Assembly: GCA_015228975.1 (NCBI GenBank)
Contig: JADGCN010000003.1
Coordinates: forward strand, 1,617 to 65,616
From: Magnetococcales bacterium
Lineage (GTDB): Bacteria > Pseudomonadota > Magnetococcia > Magnetococcales > UBA8363
DNA length: 64,000 nt
Direction: 5' to 3'
Of the stretch, positions 3,423-8,699 are shown piece after piece. Both the position numbers and the translations under genes were made by a program. A model generated the notes under the pieces. It did not search any database. It saw nothing but the letters and a program-made list of their open reading frames with translations, and had not been told where the DNA came from. How positions within the stretch are numbered: the stretch's first letter is position 1; every line of letters begins with the position of its first letter.

Positions 3423-4505
3423 TTGATCGTGGCGGGTAGTCAAAAAGACAGACATTCATCCCCTGGATTGAAGCGGAAATTGCGAGGTATCGGCGCGTTG
3501 TATTCTTGTGCGACCGTGTTTTTTTGCTATTTCGGTCTGTCCATGGCATGGTCGTTAGCGGCTTTGGCCCCGGAGGATCCCCGTCCCCCCTTGGAACCCG
3601 AACGCTCCTGGGACGCCATTGTGACCAAAAAAGAGAGTTTAATGGTCAAATATATGGATCTGGATCCGTTGGGACTGCACGGCCAGGGGCGCTTGGTGTT
3701 ACACTCGCTGCATCCCCTGGTGAACACCATCTCCTTTGACAAGGTGACGGGCAATCCCGAGTTGTGGCTGAAACGTATGGCGGGATTTTCGGCCTTGGCC
3801 CATTGGTTGGTTACGCGGCAGCAGTTGGGGGAGATCAAACTGGCCGGCCTGGAGGTGTTGATGACCGCCGAAGGGATTGATTTCAAGTTTGATCGGGCCG
3901 ATATCAAGGACGGGTATCTGCTTCAAGGACGTGGGCGCTTTGCGTTTGATGGACGATGGGCTGTACGCTCGGGGGCGTTATGGCTCAGCAGACCGCCGTT
4001 TAAGGATTTGGACAAACCTTTTGCCCGCCCCATGGGTTATGGCACTTTGGATGCTTATGGTGCCAAGGGGCGCTTCAAGGCGGTGATGGATGAGGCGTTT
4101 GCCTTGGATGCCAGCACTGGCCATGTGGAAGCCAATGCGGTTTGGAACGATGCGGTAACCCGGGGCGACATCGACAAGGTGGAGGCGGAATGGGGTGTGG
4201 AAATGACCACATTTCGCGTCAGTGATGCCTTTTTTGAACAGGGCCCCCGGGATTTGGCGCACGAGTTACTGACATATGCCGGTTTGACACCAGCCTGGGG
4301 TATGGCTTTTCCACGCATTACCTTGTCGGGCAGCGTTACCGGACCGAACTATAAGGCCCATGCCTTGCGGTTGTCGTCACCAAGCTTGCAGGTGTGGGGC
4401 ACAGCCCATGGCATCTGGTATCCTTTGCCCGGTTCCATGAACGTGGAAGTGACTGCCAAAAGCCCCGGTCGGGATATGCGCCAATTCGTTTGGCCGGGAA
4501 AATAA
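3423..4505 (+). CDS. Hypothetical membrane-anchored protein
   Basis: 360-aa ORF with one N-terminal hydrophobic helix (GALYSCATVFFCYFGLSMAWSLAALA). I recognise no family motif. The start may be GTG 3429, which sits 6 nt after AGGTGA. Co-oriented with motA. Confidence 0.5.
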   Translation: MIVAGSQKDRHSSPGLKRKLRGIGALYSCATVFFCYFGLSMAWSLAALAPEDPRPPLEPERSWDAIVTKKESLMVKYMDLDPLGLHGQGRLVLHSLHPLVNTISFDKVTGNPELWLKRMAGFSALAHWLVTRQQLGEIKLAGLEVLMTAEGIDFKFDRADIKDGYLLQGRGRFAFDGRWAVRSGALWLSRPPFKDLDKPFARPMGYGTLDAYGAKGRFKAVMDEAFALDASTGHVEANAVWNDAVTRGDIDKVEAEWGVEMTTFRVSDAFFEQGPRDLAHELLTYAGLTPAWGMAFPRITLSGSVTGPNYKAHALRLSSPSLQVWGTAHGIWYPLPGSMNVEVTAKSPGRDMRQFVWPGK

Positions 4506-4582: not shown

Positions 4583-4668
4583 GATACCCATGTCGGGGAA
4601 TGCTTGCTGTATGCGGTGCAGGACGTTTTCCAAGGGGCCTTTTTGCAACAACATGGGAAAATAATGGC

Positions 4669-5424
4669 ATGGATCTCGCAACAGTCATCGGAATGATTCT
4701 TGCGTTTGCTGCGGTTGTCGGTGGCATTCTGTTGAATAGTGGCCTGAAAGTGTTTTTCAACCTTCCCGGGCTTCTGATCGTGGTTGGGGGGACGGTGGGG
4801 GCGATGCTGATTCGCCACAAAATGGCCGATGTATTGGCTTCGTTCACCTTTTTAATGCGGGCGGTGATCGTCAAGACCCAGGACCCCGCCAAGGTGATCG
4901 GACAATTGATTGAAATGGCGACCATCGCTCGCAAAGATGGCATATTGGGATTGGAAAAGTTCAGATCGGACAATCCTTTTTTGCAGGTGGCCATCAACCA
5001 TTGCGTCGACGGCGCCGATCCGGAATTCCTGGAAAGCGTTTTGACAAAGGAACTGAGTTACATGGCCCAACGCCATGCCCGGGGTATCAGCGTGTGGGAG
5101 GGTGTTGCGGAGATCGCCCCGGCCTTTGGTCTGATGGGAACCTTGGTCGGCCTGGTGCAAATGCTGGCCAGCGCGTCGGATCCGTCGGCGGTGGGGCCGG
5201 GTATGGCCGTGGCGGTTTTGACCATTTTGTACGGCATGTTGATTGCTCATGGGATCGCCATTCCCATCTGTACGAAATTGGCGACCTACAGCAAAGAGGA
5301 ACAGATGGTGCGTCAGGTCATCATCGATGGCATGATCGGCATTCAAAAAGGGGTGAGTCCCCGATTGTTGCATGAGGCGTTGCAAGCCGCCCTGCCGCCG
5401 GCGGAGCGCGGAGCCATGCCGTAA
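4669..5424 (+). CDS. motA: MotA/PomA-type flagellar stator protein
   Basis: The 251-aa form starts at the ATG at 4669 (MDLATVIGMILAF...). It shows the four-TM MotA/ExbB/TolQ pattern with conserved Pro contexts (IAPAFGLMGTLVGL and HGIAIPICTKL). The longer ORF from 4600 has no support. Confidence 0.85.
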   Translation: MDLATVIGMILAFAAVVGGILLNSGLKVFFNLPGLLIVVGGTVGAMLIRHKMADVLASFTFLMRAVIVKTQDPAKVIGQLIEMATIARKDGILGLEKFRSDNPFLQVAINHCVDGADPEFLESVLTKELSYMAQRHARGISVWEGVAEIAPAFGLMGTLVGLVQMLASASDPSAVGPGMAVAVLTILYGMLIAHGIAIPICTKLATYSKEEQMVRQVIIDGMIGIQKGVSPRLLHEALQAALPPAERGAMP

Positions 5425-5478
5425 CGAACCGTGGCGTATTATCGGACGGGAAGATCTTACATGGACAGGTTTTAGTTG

Positions 5479-6273
5479 ATGGCCCAGTGCCCCGCATGCA
5501 AAAAGCCAGTTGTGACGGGATTGAACTCGTTTTCCGGTTTGATGGTCCTGCTGTTGGCTGTCTCTCTTTGGATGCTCTCCTTTGCCCGGTTTGACGGGCC
5601 AAAGTTTGATGAAGCAGCGGGTTCCATTCGCCGCGCTTTGCATGCCCCGGCGCTTTCGGGCAGTTCCGCACCCCTGTCATCCTGTGGCCAGGAGCCAAGT
5701 CTGGCGGAATTCAATCAGGAAATCGTCCTGGTCCATCTCCTGGACCAGATGAACGTGTTGCTTGCCAAACAACTGACCAGTTCGGAAGCGGAGATTGTGG
5801 CGACGGATCGTGGCATCGTCGTCCGTTTGGCAAGCGATTTTTTGTTTCAGCCCGCCAATCTGCAATTTCGCAAGGAATCCCTGCCCGTGTTGCAGGGATT
5901 GGCAACGCTTTTGGTCGGGGTGGAGAATGCCGTGTTCGTCAGTGGTTATACCGATAATGCCCCCCCTCCGGCCGGTTTACCATTTCCATCCAATTGGGGG
6001 TATTCCGCCGGCATGGCGGCGAGTGTGGTACAATTCTTGAGTGAAACCTCCGGGATGGATCCGTCGCGTCTCCAGGCGCTGGGTCTGGGGGAGTTTTCGC
6101 CTCGCCAACCCAACGCTACCGATGCGGGCCGGGCCGCCAATCGCCGGATTGAACTGTTTATTTCGCGCATCAGACAGGCACCGATTGTGGAAAAAGTCGT
6201 GCAACCGCCAAAACCAGCCCAGGATGGGGAACCGAAGGTCCCAACCTTGGAACCAGCGGCGGTGGTTCCCTGA
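5479..6273 (+). CDS. MotB-like protein with OmpA-type C-terminal domain (atypical, no channel Asp)
   Basis: One TM helix (GLMVLLLAVSLWMLSF) aligns with the MotB/PomB plug-TM region. The C-terminal OmpA-like motifs are SGYTDN...SNW...NRRIELFI. It follows motA after 54 nt. Confidence 0.75.
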   Translation: MAQCPACKKPVVTGLNSFSGLMVLLLAVSLWMLSFARFDGPKFDEAAGSIRRALHAPALSGSSAPLSSCGQEPSLAEFNQEIVLVHLLDQMNVLLAKQLTSSEAEIVATDRGIVVRLASDFLFQPANLQFRKESLPVLQGLATLLVGVENAVFVSGYTDNAPPPAGLPFPSNWGYSAGMAASVVQFLSETSGMDPSRLQALGLGEFSPRQPNATDAGRAANRRIELFISRIRQAPIVEKVVQPPKPAQDGEPKVPTLEPAAVVP

Positions 6274-6291
6274 CAACCATGGAGAAGGGTC

Positions 6292-6888
6292 ATGGCAGCC
6301 GTTACACAAAAACCCGGGGATAATCAACAACGCGCCTTTGTACGCGTCGACGACTATTTGCCGTTGTCCTGGCGTCGGGTTGGGGCCGAAGAGTTTGCCG
6401 AGGTCATGGCAACCTACAAAAAGTCGCAAACCTTTCCCGTCGTGCCCGACGACATCCAGACGATTCTGACCAATCTGGAGGTCACCGATAAAATTGTGTT
6501 GTTGGAGCGCTCCGATCCGGTATTGGCGCGTATTCTGGCGCGCATGGATATGAAGCTCAACATGTTGCTGAAGGTGTTTTATCCCGGTACCGAAGCCAGG
6601 CCCATGGTGCCCACTTGGGTGAATCTGAGTGGTGGTGGTGTGGCCTTCAAGGAGGCGGGCCTGGACGCCAAGGTGGATGACATTCTTGAACTCAGGTTGG
6701 CGTTATCCCAGGATTCTTTGGCCTCCATCCAATGTTTTGCCCGTGTGGTGAAAATTTTCCCCCCTGACCAGGGTGGATTGATCAAGGCGGCTTGCCAATT
6801 TGAACCCATCCTCGATGGGGACCGGGAAAAGTTGATCCAGCATATTTTCAAGCGCCAGTCGGAATTGTTGCGGGCCAAACGGAGTTAA
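6292..6888 (+). CDS. PilZ-domain protein (split c-di-GMP motifs)
   Basis: RxxxR (RAFVR, aa 14-18) and D/NxSxxG (NLSGGG, aa 111-116). The RBS GGAGAAGGG lies upstream of the ATG. Confidence 0.75.
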   Translation: MAAVTQKPGDNQQRAFVRVDDYLPLSWRRVGAEEFAEVMATYKKSQTFPVVPDDIQTILTNLEVTDKIVLLERSDPVLARILARMDMKLNMLLKVFYPGTEARPMVPTWVNLSGGGVAFKEAGLDAKVDDILELRLALSQDSLASIQCFARVVKIFPPDQGGLIKAACQFEPILDGDREKLIQHIFKRQSELLRAKRS

Positions 6889-8699
6889 TGGTCACGGTAA
6901 CAACTGGAAGATCTTTCATGGCAGAACATTTTGCAGACAGTGCGCAACCGGAAAATCTTTTATTTTGGTACCGCCGCGTTTCACCAGCGCAATTGGCGGT
7001 GATCCGGGAGTGTCGCACCAAGGGGGTACAGATGCCCGAGGCGCGACCGGGTATGGGGGAAGCGGTCGCGAGCCTTTTGGCCAAGGAGGCGGGGATCGTG
7101 CCATCGACGGCACCCCGGGGCCAACAGGGATTGGCCCGTGCCTCTGTTTTGGAGGCGATGAACCGTAAATTCAATTTATTGTTGGGATTGGTTTATCCGC
7201 CGGAGTCGGTGGTACAGAGTGCCCCGGTGATGTTGGATCCAGAGGGTGCGGGGGTGGTGGCTTGGCTGAAGGATCCCAGCTTTGCTGAAAATGATTGTGT
7301 CGAATTGCGGTTTCTTGCGAGTGCGAAACTGCCCTGGCCGTTTCACAGTTATTGCCGGGTGGCGCGGATGGCGCAGGAGAATTCGCGTCCTGGTGTTCGG
7401 GTGGAATTTCGCTTTGAAACGGTTCACCCGAATGTCCCCGGTCTGGAATCGCCACCTGCCAGAAAATTGCCACTTCCCAAGCGGGACAGAGTTCCAGCCA
7501 AACCTGCTGTTGCCCCCCCCAAGCCTGTTGTTCCACCCCCCTCGCCCCCCCCGGTAGCACCGCCGGTACCAGCGACTGCCAAACCGAGCGGTCCCGTCAC
7601 ATCCGTTCGGGCTTCCAAGCCGGATTTGCCCAAGCCGGTTCCGGTTGTCGCAGAGAAGGGCGAGGATAAATACGAACGCATGTTGCTGGAAGGGATGAAA
7701 ATGTCGCGGGCGAAGATTGGTGATGCGGTCGTCAAGAAGGGGAATGACCCTTTCCTGGCCTCGCAACCCCAGGTGGACAAGCGGCGTGATTTTCGTATCA
7801 ATGATCGCATCCCTTTTATCTGGAGTCATGTCACCGAAGAATCCTTTAAGGAGGCCATGGCGACCTTTCACAAGGATAAGGCGTTCACTCTGCGAACCAT
7901 TATCCGCAATCAGCAAAAAATATTGACCGACTTGGCCAATGTTCAGGAGGTATTGAAACGCAAGCGCTCCAAGGCCAGAAAACATGTGGATTGGCACCGC
8001 GACCGTCTCTCCTGGTTGTTTTTGCGGGCTGCTTCGGAAAACGAGGAGACCTATTATCAACACATGACGGAATTGTTTATGGTCATAGCGGCTGATTTGG
8101 CCAAGCAGGGGGGTGGGGCGATCAGTCAGTGGAGCATGCAGGCGTTGTCGCTGCTGCGCAATATGATGGAGCTGAAACAGACACGCGATCAGTCCAATCC
8201 CATCACCGAGGCCAACGCGGTCAAAAAGGCGGAATCGGGATTGGCGGATGTGGAACGGCAGTTGCCCAAGGTGTTGGCCAAGGTGGAGGAGGGGGATCCG
8301 GCGTTGGCTGCCAAAATGGCCATGTACAAAGAGGCGATTGGTGCCATCGATTTAACCCTCCATGATCGACCGGTTGGCAAGACGGCTGATGGCAAGGATC
8401 TCTATACGGTGAATATCAGTGCTACGGGACTGGCCTTTCGTACGCGCAGATTGTGGGTGAAAAAGGGTGACTTGTTGGAAATGCGGGTGTTTTTGAGCAG
8501 CGATGGCAAAAAATTTGAACCGGTCAATACCTATGGTCGGGTGGTGTTCGTCCATGGGCCGGTGGACAATAAACTCAAGGTGGCCACCTTTATCGATCCC
8601 AAGCCTGCCTTGTACGAACAAAAAATTTACCTGCACATTGCCCGTCGGCAACGGGAAATGCTTTCGGAGCGGGCCTCCGTTCGGGATGACGATTTTTAA
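6888..8699 (+). CDS. Large PilZ-family protein: degenerate N-terminal PilZ-like half, Pro-rich linker, C-terminal PilZ with long insertion
   Basis: RRDFR (aa 299-303) and NISATG (aa 509-514). The N-terminal 180 aa are paralogous to the preceding PilZ protein but lack both motifs. A P/A/V/K-rich linker spans aa 186-255. The start overlaps the upstream stop (TAATG). Confidence 0.7.
   Translation: MVTVTTGRSFMAEHFADSAQPENLLFWYRRVSPAQLAVIRECRTKGVQMPEARPGMGEAVASLLAKEAGIVPSTAPRGQQGLARASVLEAMNRKFNLLLGLVYPPESVVQSAPVMLDPEGAGVVAWLKDPSFAENDCVELRFLASAKLPWPFHSYCRVARMAQENSRPGVRVEFRFETVHPNVPGLESPPARKLPLPKRDRVPAKPAVAPPKPVVPPPSPPPVAPPVPATAKPSGPVTSVRASKPDLPKPVPVVAEKGEDKYERMLLEGMKMSRAKIGDAVVKKGNDPFLASQPQVDKRRDFRINDRIPFIWSHVTEESFKEAMATFHKDKAFTLRTIIRNQQKILTDLANVQEVLKRKRSKARKHVDWHRDRLSWLFLRAASENEETYYQHMTELFMVIAADLAKQGGGAISQWSMQALSLLRNMMELKQTRDQSNPITEANAVKKAESGLADVERQLPKVLAKVEEGDPALAAKMAMYKEAIGAIDLTLHDRPVGKTADGKDLYTVNISATGLAFRTRRLWVKKGDLLEMRVFLSSDGKKFEPVNTYGRVVFVHGPVDNKLKVATFIDPKPALYEQKIYLHIARRQREMLSERASVRDDDF

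Follow-up and report, generated by a model that had tools for sequence, protein, structure and literature searches.

Across all 5:2 ion-driven motors, the transmembrane (TM) aspartate of MotB, PomB, ExbD and TolR is regarded as the one residue that cannot be dispensed with. In the Na+ stator PomA5PomB2 of Vibrio alginolyticus (8brd, 8bri, 8zyv) this residue is PomB Asp24, which is surrounded by PomA Met155, Thr158 and Thr186, forms hydrogen bonds to Thr158 and Thr186 and approaches Asn194 (PMC11725901). The Na+ ion is coordinated by Thr158, Thr185 and Thr186, three residues conserved across Na+ stators (PMC10374538, PMC6677748). Here, we describe a stator gene pair of the same type, motA and motB′, in which the B subunit lacks the channel aspartate. 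The pair lies in a 64 000-nucleotide window (contig JADGCN010000003.1, positions 1617 to 65 616 of the forward strand; assembly GCA_015228975.1) from a Magnetococcales metagenome-assembled genome (MAG; G000, contig C168, 76% complete), and all coordinates refer to this window unless another contig is named.

Stators without the carboxylate have previously been made by mutation. The D24N and D32N substitutions abolish motility (PMC6663468, PMC6677748), and engineered MotB D32N, PomB D24N and Borrelia burgdorferi MotB D24N stators, which are non-motile, still assemble into complexes and are able to take up positions in the motor (PMC6663468, PMC11725901); those of B. burgdorferi sit at about seven of the 16 motor positions (PMC6663468). 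The structure of the PomB D24N mutant is available (8zyz), and PomA N194D suppresses PomB D24N (PMC11725901). A further relevant component is FlgX, a tetrameric-type PilZ protein (tPilZ) of Campylobacter jejuni that sits beneath each MotA pentamer and stabilizes the stator ring (PMC11725899).

Loss of the channel aspartate in MotB′

The motB′ gene (5479..6273, + strand) encodes a MotB-like B subunit of 264 residues from the ATG at 5479 or 265 residues from the TTG at 5476. The best NCBIfam matches of the protein are MotD, MotB and MotS, and its Pfam scores are 38 bits for OmpA and 17 bits, below the cut-off, for MotB_plug. The single TM helix spans residues 14–36 or thereabouts (5518..5586), with Gly20 (GGT, 5536–5538) at the position of PomB Asp24 and MotB Asp32. 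In phmmer searches against PDB chains, the segment LNSFSG20LMVLLL aligns with MGTFAD24LMSLLM of V. alginolyticus PomB (8zyv) and the helix also aligns with LATFSDTITLLL of MotB (6ysf); Val23 and Ala27 occupy the positions of PomB Ser27 and Cys31. No acidic residue lies in or before the helix; the first one along the chain is Asp39, at its periplasmic end. Both the glycine at the aspartate position and the absence of Asp or Glu in or just before the helix had been claimed in an original prediction made from the sequence of the window, and both are borne out.

Misalignment of the TM segment was rejected, as the Pfam and phmmer matches to PDB chains, a MAFFT alignment with some 40 orthologues and a hidden Markov model of the TM and plug regions all agree; among these many homologues Gly20 stays in the channel-aspartate column, and the alignment places no acidic residue of MotB′ at that position. 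A longer N-terminus bringing in an Asp-bearing helix was ruled out: an in-frame TAG (5473–5475) lies immediately 5′ of the TTG/ATG start, so that no upstream extension can supply such a helix. Sequencing or assembly error was likewise excluded, because an independent MAG (G049, protein P0001, 97% identical) carries the same glycine and five more members of the genus-level clade of the window have Gly or Ser at the position. The loss of the channel aspartate in MotB′ is confirmed.

The loss is shared by orthologues, a check that the original prediction had proposed. Among 50%-identity cluster representatives, the nearest 133 with coverage of the TM segment include 118 that have the aspartate, and all five of the non-Asp representatives for which contigs were fetched belong to the same Magnetococcales operon. 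Most orthologues retain a nearly invariant CPxCKKGAPxW-x-TFGDMM sequence. The aspartate is replaced in 14 distinct operons: by Gly in the window, L014, L017, L018, L038, L041 and L044, by Ser in L015, L012, L020 and L047, and by Thr, Ala and Asn in L043, L046 and L045, respectively. The replacement is always a small residue and never a bulky or charged one. On a tree of the partner MotA, from which the ion-site columns had been removed, the loss maps as five changes (bootstrap range 4–6), and well supported branches force at least two, one in the genus-level clade of the window beside the Asp-bearing L016 and the other in L038/L041 beside the Asp-bearing L028. By this comparison the aspartate was lost independently at least twice and probably about five times.

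The original prediction had also pointed to a CPAC pair that the N-terminus carries instead of the aspartate. This part does not stand. The Asp-bearing orthologues have CPxCKKGAP as their ancestral motif, and CPxC has been lost in every Asp-less lineage except that of the window. The other MotB of the genome and protein P0023 share the motif, and the corresponding site of Vibrio PomB is occupied by Cys-Pro. The idea that CPxC is a new motif replacing the aspartate was rejected; the motif is ancestral and mostly disappeared along with the aspartate.

The ion site in MotA and the constraint on the two subunits

The partner gene motA (4669..5424, + strand) encodes 251 residues from MDLATV, with a further ATG open upstream, at 4600. 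The protein scores 249 bits against NCBIfam PomA, below the strict equivalog cut-off of 341, and aligns without gaps to V. alginolyticus PomA (8brd) over residues 1–243 with 45% identity (E = 2e-52); PomA numbering is therefore used for MotA. The rotor-contact residues Arg88, Lys89 and Glu96 are present in all 37 MotA orthologues and paralogues compared, Pro151 and Pro199 are kept in every one and Thr158 is kept with one Ser exception. The original prediction that MotA looks canonical holds for the gapless alignment and the rotor contacts. It does not hold for the residues lining the Asp24 pocket, where M155L (5131–5133), T186I (5224–5226) and N194H (5248–5250, all on the + strand) are found. 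Of the Na+ site, the window MotA retains Thr158 and Thr185, with Ile in place of Thr186.

These changes recur with the loss of the aspartate. All 14 Asp-less operons have either Thr185 replaced by Ala, Ser or Gly or Thr186 replaced by Ile, Phe or Ala, whereas both threonines are kept in 22 of the 23 Asp-bearing operons, the exception (Ala-Thr) being the separate L001-type stator. Met155 and Asn194 are kept in the Asp-bearing orthologues and in the second paralogue group; M155L occurs in most Asp-less operons, and Asn194, invariant in the Asp-bearing orthologues, is His in the window, L014, L017 and L044 and Tyr in L020, L041 and L046. None of the Asp-less operons shows a new acidic residue in a TM segment of either subunit. 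A compensating acidic residue was rejected on this basis; only His194 turns up, in the four operons just named. As these residues read, the whole ion site is dismantled, beyond the aspartate alone. The original prediction that the pair is unlikely to work in the standard way fits this comparative pattern, namely the coupled loss of MotA Thr185 or Thr186, the relaxed TM helix described below and the want of a compensating acid.

The genes have nevertheless not been released from selection. The ratio of nonsynonymous to synonymous substitution rates (dN/dS) is 0.15 for MotB′ and 0.035 for MotA between the window and G049, and 0.16 and 0.11, respectively, between L017 and L018, all of them Asp-less; the Asp-bearing pairs L022/L024 and L023/L024 give 0.06 for MotB′ and 0.03–0.05 for MotA. 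On these ratios motB′ is under purifying selection. What differs is the distribution of the constraint. In the Asp-bearing MotB′ orthologues no part is better conserved than the N-terminus and TM helix, with pairwise identities of 0.77–0.94 over about ten families, and in the Asp-less genus clade the identity of this part falls to 0.28–0.47. In the same clade the plug has an identity of 0.57, the OmpA-like domain reaches 0.61 versus 0.49 in the Asp-bearing set, and MotA reaches 0.76 versus 0.72. Judged by these identities, only the N-terminus and TM helix of MotB′ are released from constraint after loss of the aspartate.

Beyond the helix, MotB′ keeps its plug region (ARFDGPKFDEAAGSIRRAL; 5587..5643, + strand), which aligns with the plugs of PomB and MotB and is conserved in Asp-less and Asp-bearing orthologues, and an OmpA-like periplasmic domain (5749..6168, + strand) in which the YTDN and NRRIE motifs are retained, in agreement with the original prediction. 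The same prediction that the peptidoglycan-contact arginine of this domain is replaced is correct, as Met179 (6013–6015) aligns with that residue of PomB and MotB. The replacement is not special to this gene: the arginine is absent from nearly all Magnetococcales orthologues, Asp-bearing ones included, and from the other stator of the genome. The residues found in its place are Met, Leu, Gln, Glu, Lys, Ala, Tyr or His (L001 and L016–L042). Arg-to-Met as part of an Asp-linked degeneration was rejected, the change being order-wide and predating the loss of the aspartate; stator anchoring in Magnetococcales may work differently.

The PilZ-linked operon and its surroundings

The main clue to function is the operon context, in which two PilZ genes follow the stator genes. 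PilZ1 (6292..6888, + strand; 198 residues) begins 18 nucleotides 3′ of motB′, itself 54 nucleotides 3′ of motA, and the start of PilZ2 (6888..8699, + strand; 603 residues) overlaps the PilZ1 stop, so that four co-directional genes fill the interval 4669–8699. An order-wide genome search found this motA–motB′–PilZ1 (about 198 residues)–PilZ2 (about 600 residues) core throughout the Magnetococcales, often after prmA, and the four-gene order is kept at every fetched locus that extends far enough.

PilZ1 matches Pfam PilZ and carries both of the cyclic di-GMP (c-di-GMP) motifs, RxxxR (Arg14–Arg18) and NLSGGG (residues 111–116), with a helical insert between them. Across 36 orthologues Arg18, Asn111, Gly114 and Gly116 are invariant and Arg14 and Ser113 are nearly so; the family was found only in Magnetococcales. 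An AlphaFold2 model (pLDDT of 76) has a strand at residues 19–30, helices over residues 32–96, five strands and a helix at residues 175–197, the helical insert lying between β1 and β2. The top Foldseek matches of the model are the XCC6012 tPilZ structures 3ph1 and 3rqa (E of about 1e-6 over some 185 columns, TM-score of about 0.5), followed by Bacillus subtilis MotI (5vx6). PilZ1 is thus predicted to have a tPilZ-like fold, with a β-barrel, long helices between β1 and β2 and a C-terminal helix, and its c-di-GMP motifs are intact. PilZ2 has a degenerate N-terminal region, a Pro-rich linker and a PilZ domain at the C-terminus. Its RRDFR and NISATG motifs lie about 200 residues from each other, and within the genus clade the protein shows 46–62% identity where the locus reaches it. 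The genome contains 32–43 GGDEF genes.

The operon is not the only stator locus of its genome. In G049, which is 97% complete, three genes of the MotA/ExbB family were found: one of the TolQ/ExbB type, one in an Asp-bearing motB–motA pair of the L001 type and one in the Asp-less pair. The other MotB of the genome is 28% identical overall to MotB′, with a very dissimilar TM segment. Some near-complete Magnetococcales genomes (for example G032) contain only a match at the level of the L001 type, at about 28% identity, which makes the PilZ-linked stator an accessory one. On the metagenome contig L044 (2597–7152) an Asp-less motA–motB′–PilZ1-like set is followed directly by a second motA–motB pair that has the aspartate; this side-by-side arrangement suggests that dead and live paralogues exist together.

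The genes around the core vary. Those 3′ of it differ between orthologous loci and include an exporter, rhodanese, RelA and others. Directly 5′ of motA the window has a 360-residue open reading frame (3423–4505) with no Pfam match, where orthologous loci instead have prmA and/or an IF-2B-family gene. A candidate σ28 (FliA) promoter, TAAAGGTT-N12-CCGACTT, 114 nucleotides 5′ of motA, was rejected; it occurs only in the window and its 97% identical twin and is probably due to chance. Sequences resembling σ54 boxes, TTGGC-N8-TTGC(T/A), were found 90–210 nucleotides 5′ of motA in nine of about 35 orthologous operons (L016, L017, L018, L020, L021, L025, L027, L039 and L046), with about 0.02 expected per sequence. 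These boxes are suggestive only, and the region upstream of motA in the window has none at canonical spacing.

Two further loci in these genomes concern related machinery. A second, divergent FliG_C gene (339-residue frame, about 85 bits) is present at G049:C45:19420–19740 and G000:C163:1220–1540; in G049 it is about 84 kb from the Asp-less stator on the same contig, and the canonical FliG (144 bits) is on G049:C129. A complete-looking type I Zorya locus lies elsewhere in the genome (L002; G000, C40:1091–4195), with scores of 522 bits for ZorA1, 278 bits for ZorB1, whose TM aspartate is intact, and 289 bits for ZorC1. A Zorya (ZorAB) identity for the pair described here was rejected, as MotA has no PADLOC match and the weak matches of MotB′ are confined to the OmpA-like domain.

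An accessory stator among known stators

The most economical reading of these results is that motA and motB′ form an accessory PomAB-type, ancestrally Na+-type stator without ion coupling, kept as a non-powered motor part or scaffold linked to PilZ proteins and c-di-GMP; we put the chance that this is correct at about even. A stator that has lost its ion-binding site would no longer turn ion flow into torque, and torque would be supplied by the other, Asp-bearing stator of the genome. The unit would be retained because it still assembles, MotB′ keeping its membrane anchor, plug and OmpA-like domain, and MotA, with its FliG-facing charged residues and cytoplasmic domain, could dock at the rotor. 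By analogy with FlgX under Campylobacter MotA, the co-encoded PilZ1 may dock at the cytoplasmic domain of MotA. In response to c-di-GMP the unit might then act as a brake, decoy or placeholder on stator positions, or as a membrane scaffold for both PilZ receptors; the suggestion of a regulatory or decoy stator in the original prediction is a reasonable one. Low-Na+ waters could, in our own inference, have been the cause of the lost Na+ coupling. A more specific variant is a c-di-GMP-gated passive part, in which the MotA pentamer idles on the rotor until the c-di-GMP-loaded tetrameric PilZ clamps it, or in which the units with His194 run on a carrier in the A subunit. Removal of the Asp–Thr lock between MotB′ and the MotA ring, with the pocket turned hydrophobic, would then amount to a repeated conversion of an engine into a brake or clutch. 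This variant we consider unlikely.

Several points weigh against a non-powered motor part. Assembly, arrival at the flagellar motor and PilZ binding are all putative. The plug, known for gating ion flow, is still conserved, although a permanently non-conducting channel would have no obvious use for one. MotA TM3 and TM4 are about as conserved as in the Asp-bearing lineages, which would also fit a moving or conducting complex; together with the plug, they are the observations that this reading accommodates least well. No conserved flagellar-type (σ28) promoter was found upstream of the operons, and the σ54-like boxes occur in some orthologues only. The strict count of independent losses is small, and because it is only two, the co-loss of the aspartate and the threonines cannot reach statistical significance. 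Finally, His194 is protonatable and stands at a position where an engineered aspartate can replace PomB Asp24.

This last point leads to the possibility that the unit is still ion driven through another carrier, whether His194 or Tyr194 of MotA beside the emptied Asp pocket, a relay through water or Ser/Thr, or pairing of MotB′ in a mixed B dimer with the Asp-bearing MotB encoded elsewhere in the genome. Position 194 can host a carrier, since PomA N194D rescues PomB D24N (PMC11725901), and it departs from the Asn that is invariant in Asp-bearing orthologues, to His or Tyr, in seven Asp-less sequences; the plug, MotA TM3 and TM4, Pro151 and Pro199 are conserved. Half of the distinct Asp-less operons, however, keep Asn194 (L015, L018, L012, L038, L043, L045 and L047), none has Asp or Glu there, the Na+ ligands Thr185/Thr186 are lost and the positions of PomB Ser27 and Cys31 turn hydrophobic. 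The free drift of the MotB′ helix after loss of the aspartate is unexpected for the lining of a working channel, and a mixed dimer is disfavoured by the single motB in the operon and by the sequence divergence between MotB′ and the other MotB. We regard continued ion drive as quite unlikely. Decay, in which a useless accessory Na+ stator drifts to loss with motB′ carried along by PilZ genes that are still useful, would account for the accessory nature of the operon, given genomes such as G032 in which only the other stator type was seen, for MotB′ dN/dS values of 0.15–0.26, above the 0.06 of the Asp-bearing pairs, and for the long branches of the MotA partners of L044, L045 and L046. It is nonetheless very unlikely: the frames are intact in all 14 Asp-less operons across deep divergence (45–52% identity within the genus clade), the values of dN/dS lie far below 1, conservation of the OmpA-like domain and plug equals or exceeds that in the Asp-bearing lineages, MotA is still 70–76% identical with all rotor contacts present, and the residue replacing the aspartate is always one of Gly, Ser, Thr, Ala and Asn.

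The unit might instead have left the flagellar motor and serve as a membrane anchor or sensor that tethers both PilZ receptors to the envelope, for example for downstream glycosyltransferase/deacetylase genes or for secretion. No flagellar genes lie beside the operon, which speaks for such an anchor as much as against a motor part; a glycosyltransferase gene follows the operon after 18 nucleotides in the window, ABC/HlyD-type exporter genes follow it in L006 and L010, and the peptidoglycan-contact arginine is absent. Only the four-gene core is conserved, however, and the downstream genes differ by locus. The 45% identity of MotA to flagellar PomA and the universal Arg88, Lys89 and Glu96 speak for a flagellar stator, and MotB′ has retained a plug, a linker and an OmpA-like layout, an architecture specific to flagellar stators (PMC12505986). 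A non-flagellar anchor is improbable in our judgement, if still to be taken seriously.

The operon encodes a stator found in nature and plainly of flagellar ancestry, in which the TM aspartate has been lost several times over, together with its threonine partners, and whose gene is still selected. Neither this operon nor a flagellar-type MotB lacking the aspartate turned up in a full-text literature search, and the study of MotAB evolution mentions neither loss of the aspartate, PilZ nor Magnetococcales (PMC12505986). The Asp-less operons are natural experiments on which stator parts matter without ion coupling, among them the plug, the periplasmic domain, the rotor-facing loop and the PilZ partners, and the matched Asp-bearing and Asp-less orthologues (for example, L016 versus L015 and L028 versus L038) bear on the question of brake, placeholder or scaffold. 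Were the unit still to conduct ions, the mechanism would need revision. The operon also provides the first genomic link found between a tetrameric-type PilZ with c-di-GMP motifs and a 5:2 stator, a kind of link that the FlgX study asks for (PMC11725899). The finding should interest motor specialists and is directly testable.

Among flagellar 5:2 stators of the PomAB/MotPS type (the 'FIT' clade; PMC12505986), the pair has a four-TM A subunit with a large cytoplasmic domain, the rotor contacts and the B-subunit architecture and lacks the channel aspartate, the full set of Na+-site threonines (Thr186) and the peptidoglycan arginine. Its MotA shares Arg88, Lys89, Glu96, Pro151, Thr158 and Pro199 with V. 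alginolyticus PomA, MotB′ resembles PomB in its Cys-Pro N-terminus, single TM helix, plug and OmpA-like domain, and all of the PomAB Na+ signature (Asp24, Thr158, Thr185 and Thr186) is present in the Asp-bearing orthologues. Unlike PomAB, the pair has Gly for Asp24, Val and Ala at the Ser27 and Cys31 positions, T186I, M155L and N194H in MotA, Met for the arginine and two putatively co-transcribed PilZ genes. It resembles the engineered aspartate mutants as a stator without the carboxylate; those are point mutants in an intact pocket, whereas the loss in MotB′ is natural, recurrent and under selection, and the pocket is remodelled too. As with FlgX, and with the PilZ brakes and clutches YcgR, MotI and FlgZ, a PilZ-family protein would be tied functionally to MotA. 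FlgX lacks the c-di-GMP motifs and is encoded outside the motAB operon, whereas PilZ1 keeps RxxxR and NxSxxG, directly after motB′, and is followed by a second PilZ protein of about 600 residues. In carrying RxxxR and [D/N]xSxxG, PilZ1 is like some other tPilZ proteins, such as PA2989.

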